IMG/VR virus record: IMGVR_UViG_2671180460_000013
DNA length: 26,013 bases
Direction: 5' to 3' (one strand)
From: a virus
Taxonomy: Duplodnaviria; Heunggongvirae; Uroviricota; Caudoviricetes
Numbering within the stretch: the stretch's first letter is position 1; each line of letters starts with the position of its first letter. The notes under the pieces are model-generated. The model was not told the origin of the DNA and searched no databases. It saw only the letters and a program-made list of their open reading frames with translations. A program made the position numbers and the translations under genes. Below, piece after piece: positions 1,008 to 25,386 of this stretch.

Positions 1008-1544
1008 AATGCACTCCACAGGTTGATGTGTTCAGCATATCGCAAATAGCAGCTTGTATAAAGAAACGCCACATCAGCAGCGATCGTTTTACGCGCTTTT
1101 CTTCTTGTTGCGATCCTTTTTTCAGTTTTATTTTGGAGCTTAATTTTGTGCGGGCCGCGCCGTGTCTGCCTTCTTTGTTTGATGGTTGTTTGACGCGATC
1201 CTTTCGTGATCGTTTTTTTGTCTCGCGTAAAGTATGAAAACTCTTTTAATATCATGCGGTTTTATTGCTCCGGCCATTTGTGCGATCGTAAAAACCACTT
1301 TGAAAACTGCAAAAAATTTCAAAGCGTGAAATTTCAGATCTTCGCTTTTCCCTCAGTTGCTGCGCGGGCTGGCGGTCATTTTTGCACGGCAGAAAACTGA
1401 AAAAGTGTTTCGACACAAAACCCGCGGGTTGGAGGGGGTAGCGCGGTTTACGTTACCTCACGCTTTACGTCACGCCGTTTGCGCGGTGTGCGCATACAGC
1501 GCCAGAATGGCATGCAGAACGATTAATCAGGTGGCAGATATGAA

Positions 1545-1606: not shown

Positions 1607-3304
1607 TCAGGCGATAATGTCGCCGTATTTTTCGCGCAGGCTCGTCGCCTGCAGGGCATCTGCGGCAAGTTCGCTGCTGTTCATTGGTGTGCCAGTGTTG
1701 CTATGGGTGTGGTTTGCTGTATGTGTGGCCAGTAATTGAATCAGATCCAGAATATCGATCAGCAACGTCAGCAGGTTAAGCCCTGACTTTTCCCGCGAGC
1801 CGCCGCGACCAATAAATACTGTCGGAGCGGTAAACTCCAGACCGCCGTCCGCTCTGCATGTTCTGCGGCCTCCCACGTTTTCGGTGAGGTCATGCTCAAT
1901 GGTGGATATCGCCCCTTTGAGTTGAGTCAGCAAATCCTGCGCTACCATCTGGATATGCTCACCGGCTGCGATCGCATAATTGCCGGTAGTAAGGTGTTCT
2001 GTCTGGCCTGTCATCAGTTTGCTGGTACCAAGAACACTGGTTATGTCGTTTGCCTGGACTGTTGTTGTTCTGGTTGTTGTTGTGCGTTCTTCCTGATCGC
2101 TGTTAATGGTTCGCCTGGCTGAATGCTCCCTGATTTGCTGGTCGGTTTCTCTGTGCCAGCTTCCGTCAGTCGTGACGCGCTGAAACACTTCTGCGCGCTG
2201 TTGCTGCAGCTGTTCGCCGGGCTTTACATCAGGCAGGTTATGGCCTGCGGGTAAGATTTGCCTGATGACAGGTTTATCCGGTCGTCCTTCAATGTTGGAT
2301 ATTTCCACGATGGTGCCAGCCGGCGGGTAGGCAAAACATCCCGCCTCGCTACCAGCCATCGGGACGGGGAGTGGTACTGCCGGATAAACAGGCGTATCGC
2401 TTTTATCGTTGCCGTTCTCATCAAGCAGTTGCACATCGACGGCGTAGCGTGGGCGGAAACTGTCGGCAACATCGCCCAGGGTGACGGATTCCGTTGGGGC
2501 AATGACGCGCGCCAGCCTGGTATGTAGAGTACCGCTGGCCAGTTCCGGGAACTGTGTTTCCATCTGTCTGCGTAATGGTGATTTGGAAACAGGGCTACCC
2601 GTGGTGGTAAGGCGTTCCCATGTCAGGGTCATTTTCTCGTTGTTGAGGGCTACACGGGTAATGCGCCCGGCTGGAAGGTTCACGCCCGGTCGCACAGTTT
2701 CCATAAACATGATGTCGATGCTGTTTCCGCCGCTTTGCCCGAGTGTGTACTGTTGCGGAATATCCGGCATGGTAATACTGGCAAACCGTGAGTCCGATGC
2801 GCTTCCCACAAATACGGAACCGTCCGGCATTGGATGCCAGACGTAATCGCTGATACTGAATGCTCGCCCCAGCTGGCTAAGCAGTTGTGTTCCGCTGCCG
2901 CTGTGGGTGATGTAAGGTGTCGGAGTACCGACGTAATCCGCGTCTGGCGTGATGAAAACGATGCCGCTTTGTTTACCCAGACTATCGAGTACATCCCGTA
3001 ACGTTGGATGTTGCATGGAGCAGGGGAAATCAAAATCCAGCACGGCAGCTGCTTCACGGATAAAAAGGCGGCGTGAGCCATTTTCGGCGGGTTGATCGCG
3101 TTCAATGTAGCCGGAGAAATAGCGCCATGCCTCACCATTACGGCCGAGATCAATTTGTATCATTGCGCCGGCAAGACTTTTTTTGGGTGGCAGATTATTA
3201 ACAGAAATGAAGCCACGACCGGCAGCATTCAGGGTAAGAACAAGGCTGATATCGGCAATTTCCGCCAGCTCGCCATTAATCATACAGCGTTGGATTAATT
3301 TCAT
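1607..3304 (-). CDS. baseplate central spike protein (gpV / gp5-like OB-fold and His-rich tip) with a ~300-aa N-terminal extension, possibly a hub-spike fusion
   Basis: 565 aa. Motif AGTIVEISNIEGRPDKPVI resembles the OB-fold signature of P2 gpV / VgrG. C-terminal THTANHTHSNTG resembles the HxH metal-binding apex of spike proteins. ATGA overlap with the upstream gene; AGGAGG RBS. Confidence 0.5.
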   Translation of the reverse strand: MKLIQRCMINGELAEIADISLVLTLNAAGRGFISVNNLPPKKSLAGAMIQIDLGRNGEAWRYFSGYIERDQPAENGSRRLFIREAAAVLDFDFPCSMQHPTLRDVLDSLGKQSGIVFITPDADYVGTPTPYITHSGSGTQLLSQLGRAFSISDYVWHPMPDGSVFVGSASDSRFASITMPDIPQQYTLGQSGGNSIDIMFMETVRPGVNLPAGRITRVALNNEKMTLTWERLTTTGSPVSKSPLRRQMETQFPELASGTLHTRLARVIAPTESVTLGDVADSFRPRYAVDVQLLDENGNDKSDTPVYPAVPLPVPMAGSEAGCFAYPPAGTIVEISNIEGRPDKPVIRQILPAGHNLPDVKPGEQLQQQRAEVFQRVTTDGSWHRETDQQIREHSARRTINSDQEERTTTTRTTTVQANDITSVLGTSKLMTGQTEHLTTGNYAIAAGEHIQMVAQDLLTQLKGAISTIEHDLTENVGGRRTCRADGGLEFTAPTVFIGRGGSREKSGLNLLTLLIDILDLIQLLATHTANHTHSNTGTPMNSSELAADALQATSLREKYGDIIA

Positions 3305-3876
3305 GTTTTCCCTTCCTCCTTCACGCTCCCGATGCCAATCCAGTCCAGCCCGGAGCCAATACCATCATTGATATTTTTCCAGAAAGTCTCCTGGGTATTC
3401 ATTCCTTTATCTGGTGCCTGCTCACTGCCGTTCTGTGTCTGCTGCTTTGCGATTGTTTTCTGTGAGCCACTGCGTGCCGATGCTTTTTCCGGCACGCTTA
3501 ATTTTTCCCTGAGGGTAAAGGTGACCTGCCAGTGCATCTTGCCCTGTTGTTCCGTGGCATCGATGCCGCCCGAAAAAACACCCTGTCGCATATTAATCGC
3601 CTTAGCAGTAGCGTTGGCGATGCGGTATGTTTTTTTGGCTCCGTTACTTTCTGTTGCCTCCGCAAGCTGAAAAATACGGGTCAAAATAGCTTCATCGTTA
3701 AAATCAATAACCCCCGACACGCGCAGCTCTTTGGCCTTGTTTCCCTGCTGGGCGCTCGTGGTGCTGGTTGATTGTCCGGACATATCTTTGTCCGGTAGTT
3801 GCATGGTGGCGCTGACGGTGATGTTGCGCAGCAGAATGGCTTCCCCGTCAAGCGCAAGGACAATCATCTGGGTCAT
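3301..3876 (-). CDS. hypothetical tail/baseplate-associated protein (191 aa)
   Basis: ORF with ATG at 3874-3876; its stop overlaps the start of the spike gene (ATGA). Sits inside the tail operon; no recognisable motif. Confidence 0.4.
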   Translation of the reverse strand: MTQMIVLALDGEAILLRNITVSATMQLPDKDMSGQSTSTTSAQQGNKAKELRVSGVIDFNDEAILTRIFQLAEATESNGAKKTYRIANATAKAINMRQGVFSGGIDATEQQGKMHWQVTFTLREKLSVPEKASARSGSQKTIAKQQTQNGSEQAPDKGMNTQETFWKNINDGIGSGLDWIGIGSVKEEGKT

Positions 3877-4570
3877 GTAGTGCTTCCCTTAGTGATGAGA
3901 GATTATCGCCGACGAACAGCATCACAGCTGTAAAAACCCACTCGGGGTGTGGGATGTTTTTTTGTATCAGCACTGCGGCCTGGCTAAGGGCTCCCTTGTA
4001 GCAAAAGCGCCACACCGGGCAAAATTTTTGCCGGAGTGCTGCCTGCTGATCAGCGATTTCCTGTAGTGCTTTATCTCTCGCATTCATGAACTGACGCAAC
4101 GATGATGACAATGTTTCCGGTGATGTGACGGCAGGAGTGGCTGCCTGTGCAATGGTTGCTGCCAGTGACATGCTGCGAGTGGTCTGTGTCGATAGCATTA
4201 TCGGTTCCGGAAGTGATGTTAGCGGTCTGGCGGGGATTTGCATTCTGCTGATGGCCAGTGAAAGCTGGCTGGAGATCATGCGGGACATTCGTCCCACCTC
4301 TGGCAACGGAAATGCGCCTGAAAATTGCCTGGCGAGTGATAGAAACTCGTCGGCAGACGGGGCGCAAAATAACAGCGCCACAACGTCTTTTTCTGTGTTT
4401 TCTGTCAGATAAGGTAAAAGCGCGGATACAGCATTATCCGGGCTGAGGTAACGCCCTGATGGTGTAATGTTTCCCGTATTTTCTGACCATGGGTGGAGGC
4501 AAACCATTGAACAGGTAATAGCTATGGGGGCTGGTCGCAAAACAGAGCGTATCCATGTTGAATTGTTCAT
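3848..4570 (-). CDS. hypothetical protein (240 aa), Ser/Thr/Ala-rich with a Cys-containing C-terminus; possible accessory or chaperone of tail fiber 2
   Basis: ATG at 4568-4570 with AGGAAG RBS, 24 nt after the fiber-2 stop. Lacks the conserved C-terminal motif of classical tail fiber assembly proteins. Confidence 0.4.
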   Translation of the reverse strand: MNNSTWIRSVLRPAPIAITCSMVCLHPWSENTGNITPSGRYLSPDNAVSALLPYLTENTEKDVVALLFCAPSADEFLSLARQFSGAFPLPEVGRMSRMISSQLSLAISRMQIPARPLTSLPEPIMLSTQTTRSMSLAATIAQAATPAVTSPETLSSSLRQFMNARDKALQEIADQQAALRQKFCPVWRFCYKGALSQAAVLIQKNIPHPEWVFTAVMLFVGDNLSSLREALHDPDDCPCA

Positions 4571-4594
4571 TTGTTCTTCCTGTGTGTCCGGATA

Positions 4595-6151
4595 TTACCC
4601 CATTCCGTTCTGGCGTAATGTTGTTCCCGCAAATATTTTTGCCACCACAACACAGGGAAGGGGGCCATTTTCTGCGCTGGCTGTCTCCTCCAGTGTCGAT
4701 GTATCCAGTGCATAGTAAGGTGTGTCTGGCATCACCACCCGTATTCTTACTGTTATTGTGCTCGCGGTAGCCGAAACAGAACCGACAAAATACTGAGCAG
4801 GAATGTATTTCCGGTTCTGATTCATGTAGAGATAACGTGGTTCGAGCAGAGCAGAAACAACGATACCCACTCCCCCAACAGAGGATTTCCTGACAGGATT
4901 AGATACATCCAGTTCCATAGCATAAATACGTGAACCATCCGGTAGGCTTTTAAATGAATCCAGGTTGCTGTTCAGGGTACTTGCAGCCACCTTTGGAATG
5001 ACCGGATGAGTGCCATCAACAAATAAGTCTCCGGATTGTTGTCTGGACAGTAAATTGGTCGGCGCAGAAGAAATTGCGGGGTCCTCTGATGAATGGATGT
5101 CAAGAGATTCTATCTGTTTGCGAACAAAGGCCACACTGGCAATTTCATTATCTGCTGCATCATCCGGCGGTGTTGGTATAGTCGGCTTTCCTGTGAATTC
5201 CGGGCTTTCCAGAGGAGCCCTTGTTTCAATAAGTTCCCTGAGTGCAACCTCGTTTACTTTCAGGTTTTCCCAGCCAGTCAGCCAGCCATTACCAGTGGAC
5301 CAGTAACGGTTGTAATAAATATTGCCATTAATGCCGTAGAAAATAATGGCCTTTGCTGTATGTGACGGAAGTGGTGGGTTCTGGTTCGCCTCCAGCCAGC
5401 GGATACTTATCACCCCCCGAAAAACAATGCCGGGAAGTACACCGTTTGCCCCATCCACATAATATTCTCCTGGTTCCACATATCTTATCCATGCCAGAAA
5501 ATCAGCATCAGAGTTAAACCTGACGGCCTCTCCCGGAATAAAAATATGCCCAAAACCAAATGCGCCTGGTGTCGCCAGACGACCTTCAGAACGGTCACGG
5601 ATACCATTCTGAGGTTCCATTGTGGCCGCTTTTTTTAGCCCGAGATTATCGCGTGATTCCTGTTGTGCCTCTTCGCCCTCATCAGCAATTTCTGACAGGC
5701 GATTAGGTGCTTTCAGTGCTGTTTTCAGTTCCGGAGTGATATCCACCTGCCAGCTCTGCGGAGGGGCTGTGACTTGTGCAGACTGAGCAATGCCGCTGTA
5801 TATAATCGTGAAATTACGAATAAGTGATTCGCCTGTTACTTTTTGTCGAACAGGCGTTTTTATTACGCCGCACAATGTTCTGCTGGCCTGATGGATGAGG
5901 CAAATCCAGTCATAACTGAATGCGGAGTCATCGGGAACAACGGCACTACACACAATATTGTTCTGACTTAACTGCCCATAGGTCAGTTCATTAACAATAT
6001 ATGTGATTTTTTCTTCCGGGATGGCATCATCTTCGCGCGTCGGCTCCCGCTCCATCAGGGCAAAAATAATGGCATCAGGGCGTGCAGGTAAATTACTGGC
6101 TGTGCATTCAGCAACCCACTTTTCAAATGCTTTCGTTAACAGTGCGCTCAT
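4595..6151 (-). CDS. tail fiber protein 2 (518 aa)
   Basis: N-terminal ~150 aa alignable by eye to the N-terminus of fiber 1 (PARPD, YxW motifs). Contains the fiber motif SPEFTGKPTIPTPP...EIASVAFV. C-terminal half is unrelated to fiber 1. AT-richer than neighbours. Confidence 0.7.
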   Translation of the reverse strand: MSALLTKAFEKWVAECTASNLPARPDAIIFALMEREPTREDDAIPEEKITYIVNELTYGQLSQNNIVCSAVVPDDSAFSYDWICLIHQASRTLCGVIKTPVRQKVTGESLIRNFTIIYSGIAQSAQVTAPPQSWQVDITPELKTALKAPNRLSEIADEGEEAQQESRDNLGLKKAATMEPQNGIRDRSEGRLATPGAFGFGHIFIPGEAVRFNSDADFLAWIRYVEPGEYYVDGANGVLPGIVFRGVISIRWLEANQNPPLPSHTAKAIIFYGINGNIYYNRYWSTGNGWLTGWENLKVNEVALRELIETRAPLESPEFTGKPTIPTPPDDAADNEIASVAFVRKQIESLDIHSSEDPAISSAPTNLLSRQQSGDLFVDGTHPVIPKVAASTLNSNLDSFKSLPDGSRIYAMELDVSNPVRKSSVGGVGIVVSALLEPRYLYMNQNRKYIPAQYFVGSVSATASTITVRIRVVMPDTPYYALDTSTLEETASAENGPLPCVVVAKIFAGTTLRQNGMG

Positions 6152-6157
6152 TACTTC

Positions 6158-6694
6158 TTAATTCTCGCTAATATTCTGCGGTAATTCTGGCCATACAATT
6201 GCGGCATACGATGATTTATCTGTAACCTGACTGAATGTCATCTCTCGTAACGTTTTTGTATAAATACGCCAGACTTTCAGCTTTTCCTTGTCTTCATCGC
6301 TGATTAACCCCAGCAGCAAGTCTGTCTTTTTATCGGATATTTCCCGTTCAGCAATCTCTATAAAACGCGCACGCTCCGACTCCGCCCGCTGTCTGTAGTC
6401 AACAGGAACAGGAAGAACTGCGCCATCTTTATAATACCAACGTGCTTCAATACAAAAACCTTCGGGTAATTCATCCGCTTCCACAATGGTAAAACCTGCC
6501 GGATAAAGCCGGGATACGTCTTCCGCCATTGAATAAATAACGCCGGTTTCAGGATGCGTGCACAGCTTGTACTTCTTCGTGAATTTATCCAGTGATTCAT
6601 AAAAATCCTGCCCGTCTTCACTACGGAAATACTGAATGCCTTCACCATAAGGCATATCTTCAGGGTAGTAACGCGTAACATTTCTGAGCTCCAT
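6158..6694 (-). CDS. tail fiber assembly protein (P2 gpG / Tfa-like)
   Basis: Start moved to the internal ATG at 6692-6694, preceded by AAGGAG. KDGAV motif and C-terminal WPELPQ resemble P2 gpG as recalled. Immediately downstream of fiber 1. Confidence 0.8.
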   Translation of the reverse strand: MELRNVTRYYPEDMPYGEGIQYFRSEDGQDFYESLDKFTKKYKLCTHPETGVIYSMAEDVSRLYPAGFTIVEADELPEGFCIEARWYYKDGAVLPVPVDYRQRAESERARFIEIAEREISDKKTDLLLGLISDEDKEKLKVWRIYTKTLREMTFSQVTDKSSYAAIVWPELPQNISEN

Positions 6695-6708
6695 TGTTTT
6701 CTCCTTAA

Positions 6709-8406
6709 TTAACCTGACACAGAACGCCATGCGCCATTTATATAAATCTGAGCCTGTTTGTAATACACGCCACCGATATTATCCGCAGAGTTGCTCCCGG
6801 TATCCTGAACCAGAATACCGGACAGGGTGCAGCCAGACGGTGCGCGGAACGTCCAGCTGTGTTCGTTCCCTCCCGGGTTGTAAAACACCTCACTGGTGTA
6901 CTGAAAATTCTGCACGCCTCCTGTTCTGGTCTGGTAGCGTTCATCGAAATTGCCATAATCAGTTGGTGTTACCCGCCCTGAAACATTCACTTCCCGGTTA
7001 CTTTGTAACGCGCCATTCTGAAAACGGAATATGTGCTGACCATTGGCATAAACATCCAGCAGGCCGTCACCATTCTGTTTCAGGCCGGTATCGTTATCCC
7101 CGAAAGCAATTGAGTTACCGCCCAGCGCGTTCTGAACGCCGATACCAAGTGCACCATTGACCTGCGAACCACCGCCAACAGACACTTTATGCGACATGGA
7201 TATTTCACCCGTCCGCAGATTAATAGTGAACGGTCGAAGTGGACCAATATCGCCATTCTCGCCCTGACCTTCACTGGTAGGGATAAGGTGCAGGCACTCT
7301 TCCGAACGACGAAAAATCAGACCAAAGGCTTCGTCGAAAATTCGCAGCGCATTAATACCACGGATTTTCAGCTCCCCGGTCATGGTATCGCCGTCGCGCT
7401 CAACAGCGCCTTTTGCCTTATCCATTACGATTTTTACTGCCTTTGATGTGGCGGCACGGTCTTCTGCGTCACTGTCGGTGTCATTACTGTACTGCGCAAA
7501 ACCCTTTTCGTTCAGTGTGGCATCCGGATGTCTGCGGGATTTTTCGTGTTCTGCCAGCGCATTGCTTTGTTCCTCGTCGGGTGTTTCCGGGCGCAGATCC
7601 TGTGGGCCGTCTCCTGTCATTTTTGCAAGTGGCGCGACAAAGTGTCGGAAGCCGTTATCGTCTGTATAGGACGCATGTTCCTGGCGGGCGCAGAACGTAA
7701 AAACGGTATTCCATTCGCCGGTAACAAATCCCTGCCAGCTTGCATCAATCCAGAGGGTATCCCCGACCGCAGCCGGCAGGCTGTAAGGTTCGCGCAGACT
7801 GACGCGCAGACCTCCCACATAACCCACGCCGGCGGCAACAGTAGCGGTACCGTCCTGATAGCTGACCTGAAAACCATCCCCCAGAAAAGCGGCTTCACCG
7901 TAGTGATCAAACGCCAGCAGCCGGCGGGCCTCATCCATTCCTGCAAGGCGTGCAGTGAAATCAATCTGCCAGACATCAGCGCTGACATCGATATGCATTG
8001 CTGCGGCTGCGCCGTCAAACTCCATGGAAAATGTGCGGATCAGGTTGTTTCCCTGCACGCCGTTCGCTGTTTTAATTTTTTGCTGACGAGGTGTGTGTGC
8101 AATCATGCAGAGCACGCCGCTTTCTTCGTTCAGCAGACCGATCCAGTTGTATTCGAAGTCGCCGACTGTCGTGTCCAGAATGATGGAAAACGCGGTCGCG
8201 TTCGGCGACAGGAGGCCGTACTGGGTGACCGGCGCACGATACTGAATCATGGATTCATCAGGGAGTATCTCATCGCGGGGGATCTCTGCGGATTCATCCT
8301 GTCCCGGAATATATGCAAAAACAAATGTATCCGGTCGCGCAGGTTTTCCACTGATGATCTGATTTGCGCACCAGTGTTCGTATTGTTCAGTAATAATCGT
8401 GCTCAT
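6709..8406 (-). CDS. tail fiber protein 1 (P2 gpH-like)
   Basis: 565 aa. AEHEKSRRHPDATLNEKGF, GDNDTGLKQNGDGLLDVYANGQHIFRFQNG and C-terminal YINGAWRSV match recalled P2 gpH blocks. ATGA overlap with the upstream gpI-like gene. Confidence 0.85.
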   Translation of the reverse strand: MSTIITEQYEHWCANQIISGKPARPDTFVFAYIPGQDESAEIPRDEILPDESMIQYRAPVTQYGLLSPNATAFSIILDTTVGDFEYNWIGLLNEESGVLCMIAHTPRQQKIKTANGVQGNNLIRTFSMEFDGAAAAMHIDVSADVWQIDFTARLAGMDEARRLLAFDHYGEAAFLGDGFQVSYQDGTATVAAGVGYVGGLRVSLREPYSLPAAVGDTLWIDASWQGFVTGEWNTVFTFCARQEHASYTDDNGFRHFVAPLAKMTGDGPQDLRPETPDEEQSNALAEHEKSRRHPDATLNEKGFAQYSNDTDSDAEDRAATSKAVKIVMDKAKGAVERDGDTMTGELKIRGINALRIFDEAFGLIFRRSEECLHLIPTSEGQGENGDIGPLRPFTINLRTGEISMSHKVSVGGGSQVNGALGIGVQNALGGNSIAFGDNDTGLKQNGDGLLDVYANGQHIFRFQNGALQSNREVNVSGRVTPTDYGNFDERYQTRTGGVQNFQYTSEVFYNPGGNEHSWTFRAPSGCTLSGILVQDTGSNSADNIGGVYYKQAQIYINGAWRSVSG

Positions 8407-9038
8407 GCTTTGTCTGCCTGTAATGTGTAATGCTCCACGGACAGGCCGTAATGTCCTGCCTGTAGCGAAGCGGTTAACCAGATGGTGTCCTTTCTCACCG
8501 TTGCTTCTGCTGTGTGATACCTGTAATGACCATCGAATGTGCCGGCTGTCAGCCGGGCGGTGGTTGTATTGATTACCTGAAAGAAATAGCGCCTGCAGGT
8601 ACGGCCATACTGGCGCACGAGCTGCATCATCAGGGCATTGTTTTCGCTTAACTGGGTGTCATTGATACGCAGTAAAATAACGTCCCAGTCATGCTGCAGC
8701 TGTCGTTCCAGGGTTTTTACCTCTCCCACCCCAAGACGCTTAAAGATGCGTTCGAAGCCTGCGCGTTCGCCCGAGTCCTGAGCGTTGATAAACGCGTGTT
8801 TTACCCTTAAGCGAAATAATGAAACTGGCTCCCCACTGAAGCGGGTGATGTTGCGCTGATAGGCAAGCAGGTTAAGCAGAGGCTCTGCGCAGGTATCAAC
8901 ATCAATTTGCTGTAGTGGCCATGTCAGCCAGCTGTAGACCTTCTCCCAGTAACGACGTGAAGAATGTGCCAGTGTTAATGGCTCTCCCTTGTTCATCCAG
9001 GTTGGGAGAGGGAATTCGGGCATCTCCGGAATATTCAT
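8403..9038 (-). CDS. baseplate protein, P2 gpI-like (tail protein I family)
   Basis: Start moved to the internal ATG at 9036-9038 (GGAGG RBS, ATGA overlap with the J-like stop). Position between the J-like gene and the tail fiber matches the P2 J-I-H order. Sequence similarity is weak. Confidence 0.55.
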   Translation of the reverse strand: MNIPEMPEFPLPTWMNKGEPLTLAHSSRRYWEKVYSWLTWPLQQIDVDTCAEPLLNLLAYQRNITRFSGEPVSLFRLRVKHAFINAQDSGERAGFERIFKRLGVGEVKTLERQLQHDWDVILLRINDTQLSENNALMMQLVRQYGRTCRRYFFQVINTTTARLTAGTFDGHYRYHTAEATVRKDTIWLTASLQAGHYGLSVEHYTLQADKA

Positions 9039-10219: not shown

Positions 10220-10562
10220 CAAGAGATACCGTAAAAGTCAGGTGGTCAAAAAAATCTTCGGTGTGGGCGCTAATCAGCAGGCGACCAGAAAGCGGGGTTT
10301 CTTCTGTCACACTGACCGTGCCAGGTGTGATGCGCTCATCATCTTCAATCAGTAGTGTCATCTGCATTATGAGGTCGGCACGAAGCGTCGGGCTTTTTTC
10401 AGCCAGCAGGCGCGTTGCCAGTCCGCTCTCAATGATGGCGTGCTGGCAGTCCTGGGCAATACTTTCCCTGTTGTTGCATAACACCGGCTCACTGGCGCTG
10501 TTCAGCGTGAGATTGCGACCGGTGATAAGCAAATCAATGTAAAGCGGTTTATCAGTATGCAT
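10212..10562 (-). CDS. small baseplate protein, tentatively GPW / gp25-like
   Basis: Internal ATG at 10560-10562 with GGAG RBS gives 116 aa, overlapping the tape-measure stop. Size and position match P2 gpW; motif match is loose. Confidence 0.45.
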   Translation of the reverse strand: MHTDKPLYIDLLITGRNLTLNSASEPVLCNNRESIAQDCQHAIIESGLATRLLAEKSPTLRADLIMQMTLLIEDDERITPGTVSVTEETPLSGRLLISAHTEDFFDHLTFTVSLDD

Positions 10563-12648
10563 GTAGCTCCATCCACTCGTTGAGACGGGCAGGAGATGGA
10601 TCCTGCACGTTGACGTTGACCACACGACGGGAGTTATCGATTGTGGTCTGGTTTTCGTTGTTGTTCTGCATCTCTGCCGCAATGCCACCCGGCCCCGCGC
10701 TGATGGCTTTACCACCGGTTAATACGGAGCCTTCGCCACTTCCTGTGCTTTCTGATGTGCCGATGTTAACGCCGGGGATCATGTTGAGTTTGTCCACAAT
10801 CCAGCCCCATGAATCACTGAAGGACTGTTTCACCAGTTCCCAGAGGTTACTGAAAATGTTCAGGATGCCGCCGGCGATATCCTTCAGGGCGTCCAGAGGT
10901 GAATGCGTGGAAAAATAGTTAACCAGTGCATTCCAGCCGTCCTGGATTGTGTTCCATGCATTGCCGAACCATGCCCCCATACTGCCGACCATTTCAGCCA
11001 CCCACTGAAAGGCGGCGGTGTCCATCAGTGCGGCTTTGATTTCATCCCAACGGGTGATCAGGAAATAAATGCCCACACCCAGCGCAGCCAGTGCCAGGAT
11101 GATTAATGTGATGGGGCTGAAAAGTAACTGTGTTGCAATTGCAGCTCCGCTGGTGACTGCGGTGTAGATTTTCATTGCTATGCCGGCGGCACCCAGCGCA
11201 ACAGAATAAAGCCAGAGTCCGGCGCGCTGTAATTTCAGCAGCGCCAGCTGAATTTTTGCTTTGACGTTGTATGTTCCCATAGCAATGGACATGGCCAGAT
11301 ACAGCGCCCTGACCGTTCGGGCAACTACAGTGAATGCCCACATGGTAGCCGTCAGTGTGCGTTTCAGCAGAATGAGAATCTTCAGAGGTGTAACTGCTGC
11401 CAGCCAGACCAGCCGCAGTCCTGTCCAGACAAACTTCGCCACACCCACCATAATGTTGACAACGGCACCCACTGCGGCAATGCCCAGCAGGGCGGCAGAC
11501 AGTAAACCAATAGCCCGTGTGATATTGGGATACAGACGTAACCAGGCAACAAAGGATTTACCGCCTTCGTTGCTTTTCTGGATAAACGGGTACAGAACAG
11601 GCAGCAACTGCGTGCCGATTTCGATGCGAATGCCGTTAATAATTGCGGCGGCCTGTTCCCATGGATCAGCCATGGCCTGCGCCATTTCGACAGCCTTATC
11701 CATCCCTTTGATATTGCCCAGCGTGGCGATATTCTTTTCAAGTCCGCCAATGTCCGCATTGAGTAATTTAATCATGGCCACAGCTTCATCGGAGCCAAAG
11801 GCGCTTTTCAGCAAATCGGAATCAGCCACTTTTGACAGATCACCAAATTTGCCCCTGATAAGTTTCATGATCTCGACAACACTTTTCATCGTGCCGTTTT
11901 TATTCACGAAATTAAGCCCCAGCTTTTTCTGGGCGCTGCCTACTGCGGCAAGAAATGCCTTGTACTTTGTCCCGGCCTCGCTGCCACTCATGGTGGCCTG
12001 CAGTTGTCCCAGCACGGCGAACTGTTCAGCCGCATCAATACCGGCCGCTTTTGCACTGGCACCCAGCGTGGTGAACGCCGCTGACATGTTATCGCCGGTT
12101 GTTTTAAACATTTGCACGGCGGTGGCGGTTTGCCCGGCGACCTGCTCCACCCATTTGCTTTTTCCCATGGCATCAGCCTGGTCTTTAAAGATGCCGTACA
12201 TGGTGCCCATGTAGGCGGTAATGGTCTGGCTGCTGGATTTGGTTGCTGCTGCCACCGTTGCTGATGCGGTGGTGAAGCGGGACAGCTCATCGTCAGTTAA
12301 CCCGGCAATGGCTGACTGGATGTCGTAAGAAGCACGCACAAAATCCTGCGCAGCCCCGCCGTATTCCATAGTGAAATCAACGGCGGCGCGGCTGAGTTTA
12401 CGCAATCCGGACTCTGCGACGCCCAGTGATTTCACCTCACCGAGCGCCCTGTCCATTTCAATGGCTGGCATCAGTGCCCCCTGAATGGCTGCACCCACTC
12501 CCCAGAGCGCAGCGCCTCCGGTAGCAATGTCCCGAAAGGCTCCCCGACTTGTTGCAGCAAATCCCTGAACCTGTCGCCCGGCTGCACGCAACGGCCTTGT
12601 CAGGCGGTCTGTCAGTTCAAGAAGTAATTCAAGGCGCTGTTGTGACAT
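10552..12648 (-). CDS. tail tape measure protein
   Basis: 698 aa, Ala/Gly-rich with a long hydrophobic central segment. Directly follows the frameshifted tail chaperone pair; its ATG overlaps the stop of the frameshift product. Confidence 0.8.
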   Translation of the reverse strand: MSQQRLELLLELTDRLTRPLRAAGRQVQGFAATSRGAFRDIATGGAALWGVGAAIQGALMPAIEMDRALGEVKSLGVAESGLRKLSRAAVDFTMEYGGAAQDFVRASYDIQSAIAGLTDDELSRFTTASATVAAATKSSSQTITAYMGTMYGIFKDQADAMGKSKWVEQVAGQTATAVQMFKTTGDNMSAAFTTLGASAKAAGIDAAEQFAVLGQLQATMSGSEAGTKYKAFLAAVGSAQKKLGLNFVNKNGTMKSVVEIMKLIRGKFGDLSKVADSDLLKSAFGSDEAVAMIKLLNADIGGLEKNIATLGNIKGMDKAVEMAQAMADPWEQAAAIINGIRIEIGTQLLPVLYPFIQKSNEGGKSFVAWLRLYPNITRAIGLLSAALLGIAAVGAVVNIMVGVAKFVWTGLRLVWLAAVTPLKILILLKRTLTATMWAFTVVARTVRALYLAMSIAMGTYNVKAKIQLALLKLQRAGLWLYSVALGAAGIAMKIYTAVTSGAAIATQLLFSPITLIILALAALGVGIYFLITRWDEIKAALMDTAAFQWVAEMVGSMGAWFGNAWNTIQDGWNALVNYFSTHSPLDALKDIAGGILNIFSNLWELVKQSFSDSWGWIVDKLNMIPGVNIGTSESTGSGEGSVLTGGKAISAGPGGIAAEMQNNNENQTTIDNSRRVVNVNVQDPSPARLNEWMELHAY

Positions 12649-13129
12649 TACGATCCCTTAAAAGCACGGATAATGCCGTTATTGACGGCGATGCTCATAT
12701 TTTCCCAGTAGTGGTTATCCAGCCAGACGGCGGCAGCCAGTGACTGCGGCGAGTCATCCTCGCCGGGCAGCCAGTGGCGGCGCAGAATCAGCATCCGGGT
12801 AAGGTCATTGCGATCAATGGCCCCCAGATGGCTTTTTATTTTTTTACGGTGATTTCCACTTCCGGCACAAACTCGTTATTCACGGCTGTTGCCAGGCTGG
12901 CCGGCATTCCTGGTTTTTCCAGCAACTGGTTCAGCAGATCGCGGTGCTCTTTAATCACGATACGGCGCAGGTAGTTTTTCAGCGGCGCGATTTTGTTATC
13001 CGGCATGAAGTCGTTCTGCAGGTCGTTGTAGGCTTTTACGGTCGGGATAAACGTCAGTTCATGCTCGCCGACCTGTAAAGTGATGGTGTTCTCTGCGGTA
13101 GTCTGGGTGTTTTTATCGTTCATCATCAT
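12648..13129 (-). CDS. tail assembly chaperone frameshift fusion product (E+E' / G-T analogue) made by a programmed -1 frameshift
   Basis: The -1 frame entered at the slippery site stays open for 63 codons (hand-translated, no stops) and ends at a TAA overlapping the tape-measure ATG (TAATG at 12646-12650). Confidence 0.6.
12836..13129 (-). CDS. tail assembly chaperone (P2 gpE / lambda gpG analogue)
   Basis: 97-aa ORF directly upstream of the tape measure gene, ending ...VKK-TAA on an A-rich slippery run. Three consecutive ATGs at 13121-13129; the third has the best RBS spacing. Confidence 0.7.
   Translation of the reverse strand: MMMNDKNTQTTAENTITLQVGEHELTFIPTVKAYNDLQNDFMPDNKIAPLKNYLRRIVIKEHRDLLNQLLEKPGMPASLATAVNNEFVPEVEITVKK
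12839..12845 (-). other. slippery heptamer A AAA AAA for the -1 ribosomal frameshift
   Basis: Transcript reads ACC GTA AAA AAA TAA; the X XXY YYZ heptamer sits at the last sense codons of the chaperone gene. Confidence 0.6.
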
Positions 13130-13155
13130 TTCCTTTTAAAGTCAAGAATAAGAGG

Positions 13156-13187
13156 GCTTAATAAGCCTGCAGGAAGGCTTATTAAGC
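13156..13187 (-). terminator. stem-loop (12-bp perfect inverted repeat) between the endolysin and the tail chaperone; candidate attenuator or partial terminator
   Basis: GCTTAATAAGCC, 8-nt loop, GGCTTATTAAGC, 7 nt after the endolysin stop. Followed on the transcript by a moderately U-rich tract (CCUCUUAUUCUU). Confidence 0.4.
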
Positions 13188-13193
13188 GTAAAA

Positions 13194-13535
13194 TCAGCGC
13201 ACGCCGTCGTGCTCAAGGCTGAAATGATTGCCATCCGGGCGGTTTTTAAAACGACCGCCCCATGCGCCACCAAGGGATTCCCAGTACTCGCCCAGCTCGC
13301 GGTAGGCCTCTGTGCGGGTCTGATATTCACCGTTAATAAACAGATTAAAATCCACGGCCAGCCGCTGGCAGTGCAGGCTGTTGGCAATGCCGGATCCCTT
13401 TTGTGCGTTGAGTTTTGCCTGTTCTGGCGTGCGGTACGCCTCACCGAACGTCAGGCCATAACCGCGCTGATGGGCAAACTGGATGAGTTTTCCGATCATG
13501 ACGGTAAATTGTTGTTGCTTATCGGAGAGTTTCAT
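13194..13535 (-). CDS. endolysin, M15-family zinc peptidase (L-alanyl-D-glutamate peptidase type)
   Basis: 113 aa. HCQRLAVD (H-x6-D) and C-terminal GNHFSLEH fit the M15 zinc-binding arrangement. AAGGAG RBS. Adjacent to the holin. Confidence 0.75.
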   Translation of the reverse strand: MKLSDKQQQFTVMIGKLIQFAHQRGYGLTFGEAYRTPEQAKLNAQKGSGIANSLHCQRLAVDFNLFINGEYQTRTEAYRELGEYWESLGGAWGGRFKNRPDGNHFSLEHDGVR

Positions 13536-13639
13536 TTTTGCTCCTTATGAGGTTGCTGAGGTTTGCGCAGCCAGTACCACAGTGCCCGGATAATTTTCCA
13601 GGCAATGGCGGCAGCTTTTTGTTCCCTGCGGGACAGCAT
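13532..13639 (-). CDS. small cationic amphipathic ORF (35 aa, MLSRREQKAAAIAWKIIRALWYWLRKPQQPHKEQK) between holin and endolysin
   Basis: Hand-translated; below the ORF-track size cutoff. ATG at 13637-13639 with GAGGAG RBS inside the holin 3' end. Its TGA overlaps the endolysin ATG (ATGA). Confidence 0.4.
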   Translation of the reverse strand: MLSRREQKAAAIAWKIIRALWYWLRKPQQPHKEQK

Positions 13640-13644
13640 TGCTG

Positions 13645-13941
13645 TTACTCCTCTTTGTTCTCTTTCTCGCCCAGCTTCCGGCGCATATGACGCAGGAAGA
13701 TTTCAACAATCTGGTAACCGGCAACGCCCATTGCGGTGCCTGCGCCGGCAATGGCCAGTGGGTCAAGGTTCGGGTAGCGAACCAGCAGGGCAGCGGCAGA
13801 AACACCCAGCGCGCTCCCCAGCAGGGTTCGGCCCACAAACAACCGCAACGTAATCGGCTCTGCGCCAGCCAGCACCCGACTTGCGGCAGCGATTCCGCCC
13901 AGAATGCCCAGAGTGATAATGGTGCGCTCATGCTCCTGCAT
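13645..13941 (-). CDS. holin (three predicted transmembrane segments, charged C-terminal tail)
   Basis: 98 aa with three hydrophobic stretches and a C-terminal RHMRRKLGEKENKEE. Directly upstream of the endolysin. GGGGTG RBS. Confidence 0.65.
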   Translation of the reverse strand: MQEHERTIITLGILGGIAAASRVLAGAEPITLRLFVGRTLLGSALGVSAAALLVRYPNLDPLAIAGAGTAMGVAGYQIVEIFLRHMRRKLGEKENKEE

Positions 13942-13944
13942 GGT

Positions 13945-14400
13945 TCACCCCATCAGTCCGCGCACGTCGTTCTCTGAGAGAACGGGCACGCCGTTGATAC
14001 GCACAAAGTCAGGGCTTGCCACCACGTACTTGATTTTGTGCGTGGTCAGATCTGCGCTCTCGGTGTCAATGCTTAACAGGCCGGAAAGCATCAGCTCACA
14101 ACCGAAGGCTTCAACGCGGATTTCTTCGGTTCCCGTATTGGCGTAAAACACAAAATCCATTGGCGGCAGGTCACGCCACGATCCCGCCTGAGCAGCCACT
14201 TCCCCGAGCTGGTTAAAGCTGCGGGTACTCATTTCGATTTCACCTTCGGCACTGACAGGGCCGCGCAGTTTGCCGTCAGGGATGCCACGGGTTTTGGCAA
14301 CGGCGCTTTCATCGCTGATGTCCAGTGAGATGCTTTTCACATGGATATCCGTTCCACCGATAAAAGTGTCAAACGCCATGCCGTTAATGCGGGTCGTCAT
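13945..14400 (-). CDS. tail tube protein (putative)
   Basis: 151 aa, immediately downstream of the sheath gene with an ATGA overlap. Assignment is by position and size, not motif. Confidence 0.6.
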   Translation of the reverse strand: MTTRINGMAFDTFIGGTDIHVKSISLDISDESAVAKTRGIPDGKLRGPVSAEGEIEMSTRSFNQLGEVAAQAGSWRDLPPMDFVFYANTGTEEIRVEAFGCELMLSGLLSIDTESADLTTHKIKYVVASPDFVRINGVPVLSENDVRGLMG

Positions 14401-15545
14401 GCGTTTTCCTCCAGAGATTTATCCAGCTGAATGCCCACTTTGATGGTTTTAGGGCAGGCGTAAGGGCGGACAACAATGCTGATGCTGACCGTCTTTTCGT
14501 CCTGCCAGGTGATAACCACGTCGCCTTTCCGGGGCGATTTCACTTCGCCCGGAAACGTGATGCCGTTAATTTGCATGGATTTCGCCATGGCACGCAGTGG
14601 GCGGGCAAACAGCGTTTCATGTGCGGCAATGCTGCCCGGCGTGCTGTTCAGCGAGCGGTCGGCAATCTTGGGGATGGCCATCAGCCGCACGCGGCGCGCC
14701 ACCTTATCAGCAATGCGGACATGCTCAATGACGTTGTAGTCCCCGCCTTCCACCTCAAGTGTTACACCGTCAGCCCAGTAAAGGCCGTCATAGTCGGCAT
14801 ACCACATGGGCACGCTGTAGCGGGCGGTTGCCAGTGCCTGCAGAGTGTCGAGATCAATTGCCTGCCCAGTGCTGTCTTTCGGGCGTTCTGTGGTTTTCAG
14901 TGCGGACAGGGGCCCGGTTGCCACACGTGCCGGACTGTCAGCAATGGTGACGGCGCTGTTACACAGGCGACCGGCAAGAACGCCCGGTTCAAATCCAAAA
15001 ATCTCCGGAACCAGCATGACCTGCGGGGCTGCAATGCCTTTCTGTAGTGCGGTCAGTTCGGCAACGTATTCCGCCCAGGTTTTACTGTTGTCGTTGGCGG
15101 CGATGGTCAGGATGAACCAGATGCGGCGCTGATATTTATTGATGATGGTCTGACGTAACGCCTGTATGGCGTTGATGTCATCCTTCGTGCTGACCGGCTC
15201 GGTGATCACCACGCCTTCAACTGAAACAGTTTCCTGAGCCGCCAGTATGGCGTTCTGCCATACCTGGCAGGCTGGCGTTGCTTCTTTGCCTTTGCCGGCT
15301 TCCGGCAGAACGGCAACATAGAAAAAGGCATTCTGTCCGGCATTGGTCAGTGCAGACTGAAGGAAGTTCTTCAGCGGGCTGGCGTTCTTTCCCAGTAGCT
15401 CATCCAGATCGCTGTTGGCATTAACCGGCAGAACCTCACCTTTGTTGTTTTGTGCATTGCCCACAAACAGCAGCGTATTTTCCACGCCGTCCGGTGAACT
15501 GCTGAATGTGTTGTACTGTTCAATCGTGACAGATGGCCATGTCAT
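14397..15545 (-). CDS. tail sheath protein (putative)
   Basis: Internal ATG at 15543-15545 with AGGAGA RBS gives 382 aa (MTWPSVTIEQY...). Position between tail-completion genes and tube. Not P2 FI-like in sequence. Confidence 0.6.
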   Translation of the reverse strand: MTWPSVTIEQYNTFSSSPDGVENTLLFVGNAQNNKGEVLPVNANSDLDELLGKNASPLKNFLQSALTNAGQNAFFYVAVLPEAGKGKEATPACQVWQNAILAAQETVSVEGVVITEPVSTKDDINAIQALRQTIINKYQRRIWFILTIAANDNSKTWAEYVAELTALQKGIAAPQVMLVPEIFGFEPGVLAGRLCNSAVTIADSPARVATGPLSALKTTERPKDSTGQAIDLDTLQALATARYSVPMWYADYDGLYWADGVTLEVEGGDYNVIEHVRIADKVARRVRLMAIPKIADRSLNSTPGSIAAHETLFARPLRAMAKSMQINGITFPGEVKSPRKGDVVITWQDEKTVSISIVVRPYACPKTIKVGIQLDKSLEENA

Positions 15546-15564
15546 GGTTTGTCTCCTGATTTTG

Positions 15565-16278
15565 TTATCTCGTGCCGCCGTAATGCAGGCTGCGCAGCTG
15601 CGCTTCCAGAATGCGGGCAAATTCAGCATCGCTGGCTCCCAGAAATGCGCGGGAGGGGATTTTGATTTCCCATACACGTTTTTTCTGCTCGCCTTTCAGA
15701 ATGCTGATCACCAGTCCGGCCTGCGCCATACTCATGTTTTCCATAATCCATTTCAGAGAAGGCTTTCTGCGTCCCCTGCGTCCGGTTTTTTTGCTGACTG
15801 CGCCGACGGGGGCGCGAAAGCCCAGAGAAAGAAGGCGTTCTGCCTGCCGTCGTGTGGCGGGACGGGTGCGCATGGCTTCGCTGTCCCGGCGTTTTGTGGC
15901 GCGGCCTTTGATGGTTGCGCCGTGCTGTTGCACCCACGCGACCGCCCCACCATGAGAGCCGGTGTTGTAATCCCCTTTTTTGAAGAAAAGGCGGACACTT
16001 TTCCCGCTGCCGTCAACCCTGATGGCCAGCAGTTTCGGCAGTCCCAGCAGCATTTTGTTTTTATACCTGCCGCTGGCTTTATCCGGTCTTTTTCGTGGTG
16101 CCCAGGCTGCCCCCTCCGGTGTTCGCTGTGCTTTCACATTGCGTCGTGCAGCCGGTATCAGGCCGTATTTCGCAATGCGAACCAGCAGCTTTCTGGCCTT
16201 TGCCGGCGGAAGTTCTGCCTCTCTGATGGCGCGACGAACCAGCCGGAGTTGTGACTCGTTAATCACGGGGCGCGTCAT
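15565..16278 (-). CDS. virion morphogenesis / tail completion protein (P2 gpS / Mu G family) with a C-terminal extension
   Basis: 237 aa. Region RRNVKAQRTPEGAAWAPRKRP matches the recalled hallmark of this family. ATGA overlap with the upstream R-like gene. Confidence 0.65.
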   Translation of the reverse strand: MTRPVINESQLRLVRRAIREAELPPAKARKLLVRIAKYGLIPAARRNVKAQRTPEGAAWAPRKRPDKASGRYKNKMLLGLPKLLAIRVDGSGKSVRLFFKKGDYNTGSHGGAVAWVQQHGATIKGRATKRRDSEAMRTRPATRRQAERLLSLGFRAPVGAVSKKTGRRGRRKPSLKWIMENMSMAQAGLVISILKGEQKKRVWEIKIPSRAFLGASDAEFARILEAQLRSLHYGGTR

Positions 16279-16748
16279 GGCATCACCTGGCAGTGAAGCT
16301 GATGCGCCTGAGCCACCCAGATTTCAGGCTTTTCCAGCTGGTAACGTTTCCCGCCTCTGGGGATGGGGCCGTTTTCGTCCTCAACCAGGGTGATGGGATC
16401 AACCAGCGGCAGACTGATTTCCAGCCATGCCACTTCATTTTCATCATCCACTTCGACGTCAACGGCTGGCGCATCCGGTGCCAGGCGCTGGCGCAGGTCG
16501 CCGCCGTTGTCTGCCAGCCAGGCTTCAACCAGAGAAAACACCAAATCCGGATTGAGCTGACGATAGGGCCATGCGTCCCATCGCAGAAAAGCCGTATATT
16601 TTCGGACCTGCGTACATAACTGCCCGTGCCCCAGCGACTTCGTAAACGGAACGAGCGTGATGTCATCCATGTCACTGGTGAACGGAATGCGTGCGCGTGC
16701 CGGCAGATTGTTTTCAATGAATGCCGTCAGGCTGGCGAGTTGCGTCAT
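16275..16748 (-). CDS. tail completion protein, P2 gpR-like
   Basis: 157 aa. LVFSLVEAWLADNGGDL...LEISLPLV resembles recalled P2 gpR. AAGGAA RBS. Follows gene L by 9 nt. Confidence 0.6.
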   Translation of the reverse strand: MTQLASLTAFIENNLPARARIPFTSDMDDITLVPFTKSLGHGQLCTQVRKYTAFLRWDAWPYRQLNPDLVFSLVEAWLADNGGDLRQRLAPDAPAVDVEVDDENEVAWLEISLPLVDPITLVEDENGPIPRGGKRYQLEKPEIWVAQAHQLHCQVMP

Positions 16749-16757
16749 ACCATTTCC

Positions 16758-17252
16758 TTAATCAATCAGCGCGATGGATGCACGCGGTCGGCCCAGCAGC
16801 GCCCGCACCGCCATGGCCGCTTCAGCCAGCAACGTCCGGCGGCTTTCGCTGGCTTCTGATGATGGCTGCGCCTCGCGCCGCCCCACGCTGGCAGATTCCG
16901 GCAAAAGATCGGCCTTTGCGCGGGCATACACAGCCTTGGTGTACAGTGCTGTAATGTGGTTCTGCATCCGTTCAGGTTGTGCATCCGTATTGCGCGGCTC
17001 TGGTTGCAACACGGTGTAACCCGGAATATCAGCGGCCCGGATGTGGCCCTGTTCCTGCCAGTATTCACGGCGTGCAGCCAGTTCAGTGTTAATCTCTGTT
17101 ACCGCGCAAAGCAGCGCCGTCAGCACCGTTTCGTGTGACGTGACGGCGGGGATGCTGCGGCTCTTTTCAAAATCGCCGGCATCAATATCCGGCCAGAATC
17201 CATCGTTCTGAATAATGGCCTGCTGATAGTGAATGCTTTTCCCGTCAAACAT
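16758..17252 (-). CDS. L: head completion/stabilization protein, P2 gpL-like
   Basis: ORF-track start at 17447 is GTG. The internal ATG at 17250-17252 (GGAG RBS, MFDGKS...) gives 164 aa, matching P2 gpL size. FWPDID resembles FFPDID recalled from P2 L. Confidence 0.7.
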   Translation of the reverse strand: MFDGKSIHYQQAIIQNDGFWPDIDAGDFEKSRSIPAVTSHETVLTALLCAVTEINTELAARREYWQEQGHIRAADIPGYTVLQPEPRNTDAQPERMQNHITALYTKAVYARAKADLLPESASVGRREAQPSSEASESRRTLLAEAAMAVRALLGRPRASIALID

Positions 17253-24391: not shown

Positions 24392-24395
24392 TGAT

Positions 24396-25355: not shown

Positions 25356-25386
25356 GTCGCTTTTCCTTATGTTGATTAATTAATCG

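Follow-up and report, generated by a model that had tools for sequence, protein, structure and literature searches.

The virus record IMGVR_UViG_2671180460_000013 is a stretch of 26,013 nucleotides from a member of the Caudoviricetes, here called the window. It holds a block of virion genes whose head part resembles that of phage P2 and whose tail part does not. We are confident that positions 1607-23335 of the window are the complete late cassette (virion and lysis genes) of a phage of the HP1 subgroup of the Peduoviridae, the P2 family, carried as a prophage by Escherichia coli. We hold just as firmly that the joining of a P2-like head to a non-P2 tail is an ancient trait common to the whole HP1 subgroup, and did not arise in the present element.

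Genes were assigned by Pfam and PHROGs profiles, with a cut-off of E<0.01 in BLASTP searches, and folds were assigned by comparing AlphaFold2 (AF2) models with the Protein Data Bank (PDB) using Foldseek. The gene identities and their order, the folds of the sheath and of the hub-spike protein, and the collinearity with phages of the HP1 group are read directly from these comparisons.

The open reading frame (ORF) listing and the profile searches show the virion and lysis genes running leftward in one long block from 20003 to 1607, opposed by a rightward terminase and portal pair. The start of L at 17252 and the end of the last gene at 1607, both on the minus strand, are the true limits of the stretch from L to the last gene. 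After L come, in order, an R-like gene, an S-like gene, a DUF2586 sheath, an orf24-type tube, a holin, an M15 endolysin, a TAC_10 chaperone, the tape measure, a DUF2590 gene and a J-like gene. These are followed by an I-like gene, fibre 1, the tail fibre assembly gene Tfa, fibre 2, a phrog_1677 protein, HP1_ORF34, and a baseplate protein of 565 amino acids. A preliminary description of the window, made from its letters, had read this same order after L, and every gene that it listed from L onwards is present on the minus strand inside 1607-17252. The profile and fold searches back its head genes and most of its tail calls, with the W-like gene assigned by family and literature; of its two unknowns, HP1_ORF34 is the one that receives an assignment.

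Comparison with the HP1 group

Phage HP1 was sequenced in 1996, and a late architecture of this kind has been textbook knowledge for HP1-like phages since then. As annotated, the HP1 order begins with orf15 (Q) and orf16 (P), opposed by orf17 (O), orf18 (N), orf19 (M) and orf20, then the terminator orf21, orf22, the sheath orf23, and orf24. It continues with hol, lys, orf25 to orf30, the fibre orf31, the Tfa gene orf32, orf33, orf34, and the baseplate gene orf35. In BLASTP comparisons with orf15 to orf35, each late gene of the window pairs with the HP1 gene of the same position, with the exception of the holin, the endolysin, Tfa and fibre 2. The first three have no match in HP1, and fibre 2 matches the single HP1 fibre gene, orf31. 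Phage ESSI2_ev239 goes further, with matches for the lysis genes and a weak one for Tfa.

This order is not peculiar to HP1. The annotated orders of HP1, ESSI2_ev239, K139, phiO18P and SI7, phages of five genera, agree, and in each of these genomes the tblastn positions of the window proteins are strictly monotonic. When IMG/VR was scanned with an alignment of the sheath, 80 loci were recovered, and the core genes found keep the same order and orientation in every one of the 80. A P2-type capsid gene is present in 64 of the 68 loci that have enough upstream DNA, the exceptions being three deletion remnants and one headless cluster.

The tail families tell the same story. Those of the HP1 type are all present (DUF2586, HP1_Orf24, TAC_10, DUF2590, HP1_ORF34 and an orf35-type hub-spike), and the very names that Pfam gives to the window genes already indicate Haemophilus phage HP1. 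All tail proteins except Tfa match HP1-group phages, which places the tail nearer to the HP1 group than to the P2 group, the distinction drawn in Table 2 of PMC10612066. The HP1-like viruses were defined within the Peduovirinae by Lavigne et al. (2009; PMC2771037) as having capsid genes in the P2 order and tail genes with "generally no similarity to P2"; their cos site lies next to attP, not beside the portal gene (PMC2771037). The window stops short of the attachment site.

The likeness to HP1 and HP2 (Hpunavirus) has both a shared and an unshared part. Shared are the late order, detectable homology in all non-lysis genes except Tfa, and a conserved slippery site in the chaperone gene. HP1 differs in its holin and endolysin, in having an Rz-like gene and a single fibre gene, and in its host and early region. 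The closest sequenced phages are the ESSI-2-like phages of Cronobacter and Escherichia (Seongnamvirus, Evevirus) and Salmonella phage SI7 (Irrigatiovirus), which have the same order throughout. Their identity to the window proteins is 55-56% for the sheath, 60-63% for J, and 78-80% for the M15 endolysin. They show, however, no similarity at the nucleotide level, and they have one fibre gene, an Rz-like spanin, and early regions unrelated to the P88-like one found here. Because identity is modest even to these closest sequenced phages (26-80%), the element is a distant member of the HP1 subgroup. It is an uncharacterised one, new at roughly the level of a genus.

Relation to P2 and Mu, and the origin of the tail

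The annotated order of P2 is L, X, Y, K, lysA/B/C, R, S / V, W, J, I, H, G / FI, FII, E/E', T, U, D, ogr. Against this, the preliminary description had observed that the lysis block is moved, that the tape measure precedes the genes for baseplate and fibres, and that the spike comes last, and the P2 annotation bears it out on each count. Synteny was compared with P2-like and Mu-like genomes, the check that it had proposed; the order matches the HP1 group, and neither P2 nor Mu.

BLASTP finds P2 matches for Q, P, O, N, M, L, S, the holin, part of T, the fibre and Tfa. No P2 match at the cut-off was found for R, the sheath, the tube, the chaperone, DUF2590, J, I or the last three genes, nor any P88 match for the sheath, tube, chaperone, DUF2590, J, I or orf33-35. 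The Pfam families of P2 FI, FII, W, U, D, V, X and E (PF04984, PF04985, PF04965, PF06995, PF05954, PF04717/PF18715, PF05489 and PF10109) have no match among the window proteins, though all of them match P2 proteins. The statement that the sheath and tube do not resemble P2 FI and FII holds in every comparison made: BLASTP gives no match, the hhalign probability is below 1%, and FI and FII belong to PF04984 and PF04985, Pfam families that differ from those of the window sheath and tube.

Profile-profile comparison by hhalign of six-sequence window profiles with two-sequence P2/P88 profiles gave probabilities of 98.7% for L against L, 97.6% for S against S, and 49% for R against R. The sheath, tube, W, U and D/V of P2/P88 and Mu were not recovered in these comparisons, whose power is too low to confirm the published HHpred links.

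What P2 and P88 have in common with the window is the head block with its orientation, the families of L, R, S, J, I and the holin, and an activator of the Ogr/Delta type. They differ in placing lysis after X and V-W-J-I-H-G before FI-FII-E-T-U-D, and in encoding hub and spike in separate genes. The marks of a late region of the P2 subgroup (its families, and the order L-X-lysis-R-S / V-W-J-I-H-G / FI-FII-E-T-U-D) are not those of the window. A Mu-like tail module, marked by homology to Mu L, M and gp41-gp48 and by the order hub-spike-wedge-fibre, was not found either.

How, then, did a P2-type head come to have such a tail? All genera of the Peduoviridae are divided into an HP1 and a P2 subgroup by their tail proteins, with a split in the tail far deeper than that in the head, according to a study of phages ACA1 and ACA2 (PMC10612066, 2023). 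An ancient replacement of the tail module has already been proposed for the HP1 subgroup (PMC10612066, sections 3.11 and 4.2). The whole-tail exchange suggested in the preliminary description agrees with this published explanation; what does not stand is its placement in the present element as a mosaic, as collinearity across five genera and 80 of 80 loci makes plain. Both the observation and its interpretation are already published at the level of the subgroup, and the well-characterised relative that was to speak against the suggestion is at hand: HP1 has the same order, gene for gene.

It is conceivable, of course, that no exchange ever happened. Here, the HP1-type tail would be the orthologue of the P2 tail, diverged past recognition and rearranged by transposition of blocks (lysis, sheath to tape measure, hub and spike). 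The gene content is nearly one-to-one with that of P2 (R, S, FI, FII, E/E', T, W, J, I, H, G, perhaps U, and D plus V), the folds are the same, and published HHpred searches usually pair HP1 tail proteins with those of P2 ahead of those of T4 or Mu (PMC10612066, section 4.2). Even so, divergence measured by BLASTP is far higher in the tail than in the head of the same genomes, and the published time-tree of the sheath has a split much deeper than that of the portal (PMC10612066). The J-like protein, in addition, is nearer to Mu gp47 than to P2 J (hhalign 95% versus 23%). No sheath of the pyocin or P2 type appears among the top 50 structural matches of the sheath model, which is weak evidence, as the TM scores are about 0.4. 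We regard descent without exchange as unlikely.

A tail module acquired from a Mu-like phage is highly improbable. The run of sheath, tube, chaperone, tape measure, baseplate and fibres does resemble the Mu order, and the J-like match to Mu gp47 would fit. However, Mu gives no BLASTP or tblastn match at E<0.01 save for two exchangeable parts, the fibre and Tfa, whose matches to Mu S and U are weak; the sheath and tube have no profile similarity to Mu L and M; and the hub and spike of Mu precede its wedge genes, where the hub-spike gene of the window comes last.

Least probable of all, indeed close to negligible, is a recent recombination just after L in this element that joined a P2-type head to a foreign tail: the good P2 matches of Q to L and their absence for most tail genes would be explained, but the same junction and order are found in the five phage genera and the 80 IMG/VR relatives, head and tail identities rank the reference phages in much the same way (ESSI2 and SI7 closest, K139 or HP1 farthest), R and S still fit P2 families although they lie beyond the supposed joint, and there is no step in GC content at 16.7-17.3 kb. 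GC is 0.52-0.59 from 7 to 20 kb, and is lower only in the fibre region (4-7 kb) and in the spacer between O and P. Since the head proteins are also HP1-group-like, the order is common to the relatives, and GC shows no step, no element-specific junction is placed after L.

A joint with a P2-subgroup early region

The only recent joint between modules that was found, as judged from nucleotide matches, separates the ogr/Rrf2 genes from stbB near 24.2 kb, and hence lies outside 1607-17252. From about 24194 rightwards (24194-26013; StbB, ParM and a replication endonuclease) the window is 94-97% identical in nucleotides to P88-like phages of the genus Xuanwuvirus. The late 21 kb have no nucleotide match in any phage record. 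A megablast search of the whole window against phage records returned only fibre tips, a short stretch of the tape measure, and the ParM region, and no close phage. In a relative in the E. coli sequence NZ_CP074819, 96% identical over 96% of the window, the P88-like similarity spans the whole early operon (locus L004, 37157-48076). The late region of P88 itself is of the P2 type, with FI/FII, V-W-J-I-H-G, U and D. The lineage thus combines an early region of the P2 subgroup with a late cassette of the HP1 subgroup, a finding that is new here.

A genus is delimited under the ICTV criterion at about 70% nucleotide similarity. Xuanwuvirus calls for such similarity over most of the genome, and here it is confined to the early region. 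We lean slightly toward the view that the element represents a recent hybrid between Peduoviridae subgroups and a new genus, in which the late cassette is passed on as a closed whole that brings along its Ogr-type activator and its dyad, and to which fibre 2 has been added. Smaller mosaic patches are the tip of fibre 1 with Tfa, the P2-Y-like holin (the HP1 holin is unrelated), and fibre 2.

Sheath, tube and neck

The DUF2586 protein (14397-15545, minus strand; HP1 orf23; PF10758, E=5e-127; phrog_907 "tail sheath") is a contractile tail sheath by its predicted fold. Its AF2 model, built from an alignment of 29 sequences, has a mean predicted local distance difference test (pLDDT) score of 75, and its top 49 Foldseek matches in the PDB are all contractile sheath proteins, led by 3hxl at E=5.6e-10. 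This fold evidence for the identity of the sheath is new here.

The next gene (13945-14400, minus strand) is a candidate for the tail tube. It belongs to the HP1 orf24 family (PF10772, Phage_HP1_Orf24; phrog_1182 "tail protein"), with 51% identity to HP1 orf24, and the records of ESSI2 and K139 label genes of this type as tail tube. Upstream of the sheath are a tail terminator of the R type (16275-16748, minus strand; HP1 orf21; PF06891, phrog_65) and a tail completion or Neck1 protein of the S type (15565-16278, minus strand; HP1 orf22; PF05069, phrog_26).

Baseplate and hub-spike

The last gene of the cassette (1607-3304, minus strand; phrog_2258) encodes a VgrG-like protein of 565 amino acids in which, according to its model, baseplate hub and spike are fused in one chain, as in HP1 orf35 (P2 gpD plus gpV). 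The preliminary description had called it the spike; by its fold this was right, and it is more exactly hub and spike together. The AF2 model was built from 32 sequences with a pLDDT of 66, residues 1-240 scoring above 80. Foldseek aligns it over about 490 columns, at E of 1e-15 to 1e-12, with Pvc8-type proteins of the Photorhabdus virulence cassette (PVC), AlgoCIS, Afp8 of the antifeeding prophage (AFP), and VgrG of the type VI secretion system (T6SS). It also matches the hubs Mu gp44, pyocin R2 and T4 gp27. This evidence, too, is new here. The VgrG, Pvc8 and Afp8 proteins of the T6SS and of extracellular contractile injection systems have the same predicted fold at sequence identities of only 11-14%; they serve secretion and injection systems, whereas the window protein belongs to the baseplate of a phage. 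Near its C-terminus the alignment has an invariant H-x-H (H532, H534), which we take to recall the metal-binding apex of spikes of the gpV type.

Preceding the hub-spike gene are the HP1 ORF34 baseplate complex protein, possibly gpU-like (3301-3876, minus strand; PF25759, E=2e-53), and an HP1 orf33-like protein (3848-4570, minus strand; phrog_1677, phrog_31292) that is 24-35% identical to its counterparts in HP1 and ESSI2_ev239. In phage ACA1, a protein of this orf33-like type is reported from mass spectrometry as a minor virion protein (PMC10612066, supplement). The other baseplate genes follow the tape measure. DUF2590 (10212-10562, minus strand; HP1 orf28; PF10761) is a sheath initiator of the gpW/gp25-like type according to the literature. 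The J-like wedge (9035-10219, minus strand; HP1 orf29) matches PF04865 (Baseplate_J) and phrog_6, and the I-like protein (8403-9038, minus strand; HP1 orf30) matches PF09684 (Tail_P2_I) weakly (E=1e-4) together with phrog_1228. Table S1 of PMC10612066 gives, from HHpred, HP1 orf28 as gpW, orf29 as gpJ, orf34 as gpU ("uncertain"), and orf35 as a gpD-gpV fusion. Sequence searches of the PDB found nothing significant, either with single sequences (sheath, tube, hub-spike) or with six-sequence profiles (DUF2590, orf34, tube).

Chaperone, tape measure and lysis genes

The tail assembly chaperone (12836-13129, minus strand; PF10963, Phage_TAC_10) corresponds to HP1 orf26 and is the functional analogue of P2 E. 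Its ORF ends in GTA AAA AAA TAA, which includes the slippery heptamer A_AAA_AAA (12845-12839), and the -1 frame is open to 12648, just before the start of the tape measure. The extension (12648-12845, minus strand) would give a predicted chaperone fusion of 160 amino acids, and an ORF annotated as "DUF6890" is contained in it. The slippery site with its extension is conserved, as A_AAA_AAC at the same spot, in HP1, ESSI2_ev239, K139, phiO18P and SI7, and the site is also conserved in an E. coli relative. The layout, with a heptamer near the stop codon and a -1 ORF reaching up to the tape measure, is that of lambda G/GT and of P2 E/E'. From these sequence features we predict that the tail chaperone gene has a -1 frameshift site that is conserved, a point that is new here. 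The tape measure itself (10552-12648, minus strand; PF10145, phrog_28) corresponds to HP1 orf27.

The lysis genes are a holin of the P2 Y type (13645-13941, minus strand; PF04550, phrog_175), 39% identical to P2 Y, and an M15 peptidase endolysin (13194-13535, minus strand; PF13539), whose 78-80% identity is to the endolysins of ESSI2_ev239 and SI7. No spanin was found in the window with seven known ones as queries, including the Rz-like proteins of SI7, ESSI2_ev239, HP1, phiO18P, P88 and P2, and no small ORF with a lipobox was seen there.

A gap of 64 base pairs separates the endolysin stop from the chaperone start. It contains a perfect inverted repeat of 13 base pairs, GCTTAATAAGCCT / AGGCTTATTAAGC, with a loop of 6 nucleotides (13156-13187). 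The repeat may be a terminator, an attenuator, or a processing site that divides the late transcript.

Tail fibres

Fibre 1 (6709-8406, minus strand; PF12571, PF03406) has a tail-collar N-terminal domain and an exchangeable tip, and is followed by its assembly gene Tfa (6158-6694, minus strand; PF02413, phrog_136). From 6261 to 7424, a stretch that takes in the C-terminal end of fibre 1 and the beginning of Tfa, the window is 86-92% identical in nucleotides to tail fibre genes of the lambdoid elements Rac-SA53 and phiP27. Receptor-binding tips are commonly swapped in this way between phage families.

Fibre 2 (4595-6151, minus strand; PF12571) is also of the tail-collar type. Its N-terminal domain shares only 33% identity with the one in fibre 1, and no second chaperone gene accompanies it. 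Two tail-collar fibre genes occur only in 16 close relatives, while 48 more distant relatives carry one. The second fibre gene is thus an addition specific to the lineage, a finding that is new here. The NZ_CP074819 relative has a longer fibre 2 and a DUF4376 gene.

Head genes and late control

The capsid and packaging genes have the P2-type layout, with Q and P on one strand and O, N, M and L on the other. That Q, P, O, N, M and L follow P2 was noted in the preliminary description, and Pfam models of P2 families agree. Q and P (plus strand) and O, N and M (minus strand) fall outside the range that it covered, 1607-17252.

The portal gene Q (21978-23012, plus strand; PF04860) is of the P2 Q/HP1 orf15 type, and the large terminase P (20198-21985, plus strand; Terminase_6N, 6C, Terminase_5) of the P2 P/HP1 orf16 type. 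On the other strand lie the capsid scaffold and protease O (19107-20003, minus strand; PF05929, Phage_GPO), the major capsid protein N of the P2 family (18079-19092, minus strand; PF05125, Phage_cap_P2, E=5e-83), the small terminase M (17351-18061, minus strand; PF05944, Phage_term_smal), and the head completion or adaptor protein L (16758-17252, minus strand; HP1 orf20; PF05926, Phage_GPL).

By BLASTP, these head proteins, too, stand closer to the HP1 group than they do to P2. For Q, the identity is 54% with HP1 orf15 against 37% with P2 Q; P is 53% identical to HP1 and 59% to ESSI2_ev239 against 44% to P2; and M is 40-47% identical to the HP1 group against 25% to P2. N is 59% identical to ESSI2_ev239 and 29% to P2.

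A zinc-finger late activator of the Ogr/Delta type (23078-23335, plus strand; PF04606) adjoins the portal gene, as in HP1-group phages, and is 45-51% identical to its counterparts at the same position in ESSI2_ev239 and SI7. The divergent spacer between O and P, 194 base pairs long, contains the perfect dyad TTCGGATAT-N6-ATATCCGAA (20088-20111), its sole copy in the window, with an extra CCGAA 5 nucleotides downstream. Vibrio phage K139 has an identical copy. The form TTCGG-N14-CCGAA occurs once each, in the same place, in 34 related loci, K139 and phiO18P among them. The dyad is a candidate binding site for the Ogr-type late activator in HP1-group phages. A literature search with the dyad sequence returned unrelated primers only.

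The late-promoter motif of P2, TGT-N12-ACA, was considered and rejected: it has 6 matches in the window against 6.6 expected, and none in the O/P spacer. A generic sigma-70 scan gave fewer promoter-like sites than shuffled sequences did, and was uninformative.

How the cassette would work

From what is known of P2-type and other contractile tails, we infer the following assembly roles, together with the frameshifting and the promoter control. The Ogr/Delta-type protein would switch on divergent late promoters in the O/P spacer. Q, P, O, N, M and L would then assemble and fill a P2-type capsid, with L connecting tail to head. The baseplate would form from DUF2590 (W-like), the J-like and I-like wedges, one or two tail-collar fibres, and the orf33-like and orf34-like proteins, arranged around the hub-spike. 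The TAC_10 chaperone and its -1 frameshift fusion would handle the tape measure. On the baseplate, the DUF2586 sheath and the orf24-type tube would polymerise, and the R-like and S-like proteins would cap and finish tail and neck. Holin and endolysin, from their place between the tube and chaperone genes, would lyse the cell.

Several points weigh against the reading of the window as an HP1-subgroup late cassette. Amino acid identity to HP1 is only 23-57%, and that to the closest sequenced phages, ESSI2-like and SI7, ranges as widely as was noted above. No spanin gene is recognised in the window. The tube call comes from family, position and database annotation, for a protein lacking a relative in the PDB that sequence can detect. 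The readings of DUF2590 as gpW and of orf34 as gpU rest on published HHpred results that hhalign, with the thin profiles used here, did not reproduce. Model quality is moderate in AF2 (pLDDT 66 and 75), the C-terminal half of the spike being poorly modelled. Finally, the virion, for which the subgroup would call for an icosahedral head and a contractile tail, its inducibility, and the use of both fibres are predictions from genes and models.

Distribution and significance

Among 5,426 complete E. coli genomes, 41 carry the late region at a coverage of at least 80%. A hub-spike protein identical to that of the window is encoded in GCA_001420065.1 and GCA_016674655.1, beside ytfP-tamB-tamA-msrA (loci L010 and L011, 12924-21698). 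The relative in NZ_CP074819 adjoins raiA/bamD (L004, 1-11900). Because the neighbours are ytfP-tamB-tamA-msrA in the one case and raiA in the other, the insertion site varies.

The end of the window beyond the hub-spike gene (1-1019, minus strand) holds cargo genes: a YafO-family toxin (1-381), preceded by an ORF of 212 amino acids (381-1019) that could be its partner. At this end, NZ_CP074819 has an ATP-dependent nuclease and a methyltransferase fragment, and then the host raiA.

One IMG/VR locus (IMGVR_UViG_3300048856_000141; L036, 8530-21143) holds an HP1-type tail cluster without head, S-like or lysis genes. It consists of ogr-like, R-like, sheath, tube, chaperone, tape measure, DUF2590, J, I, fibre, Tfa and orf33-35 genes, and directly follows the end of a P2-type prophage (FI, FII, E, T, U, D, ogr). 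No close match to it was found in E. coli genomes. Either the cluster is tailocin-like, or it is what a deletion has left.

For biology at large these results matter little, as the architecture has long been known and its evolutionary reading was published in 2023 (PMC10612066). Their value is in annotation. E. coli genes labelled "DUF2586", "phage protein", "DUF6890" and "hypothetical" can be given the names of sheath, tube (by family and position), predicted frameshift extension, and hub-spike. Most genes of the lineage lack a counterpart above about 60% protein identity in any sequenced phage isolate, and the HP1-type tail proteins that were searched (sheath, tube, DUF2590, orf34 and hub-spike) have no solved structure detectable by sequence. 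This, in turn, makes the lineage a reasonable target for induction and cryo-electron microscopy. If the element is indeed a recent hybrid of an early region from one subgroup with a late cassette from the other, it would be an example of the swapping of whole virion modules between subgroups of the Peduoviridae.

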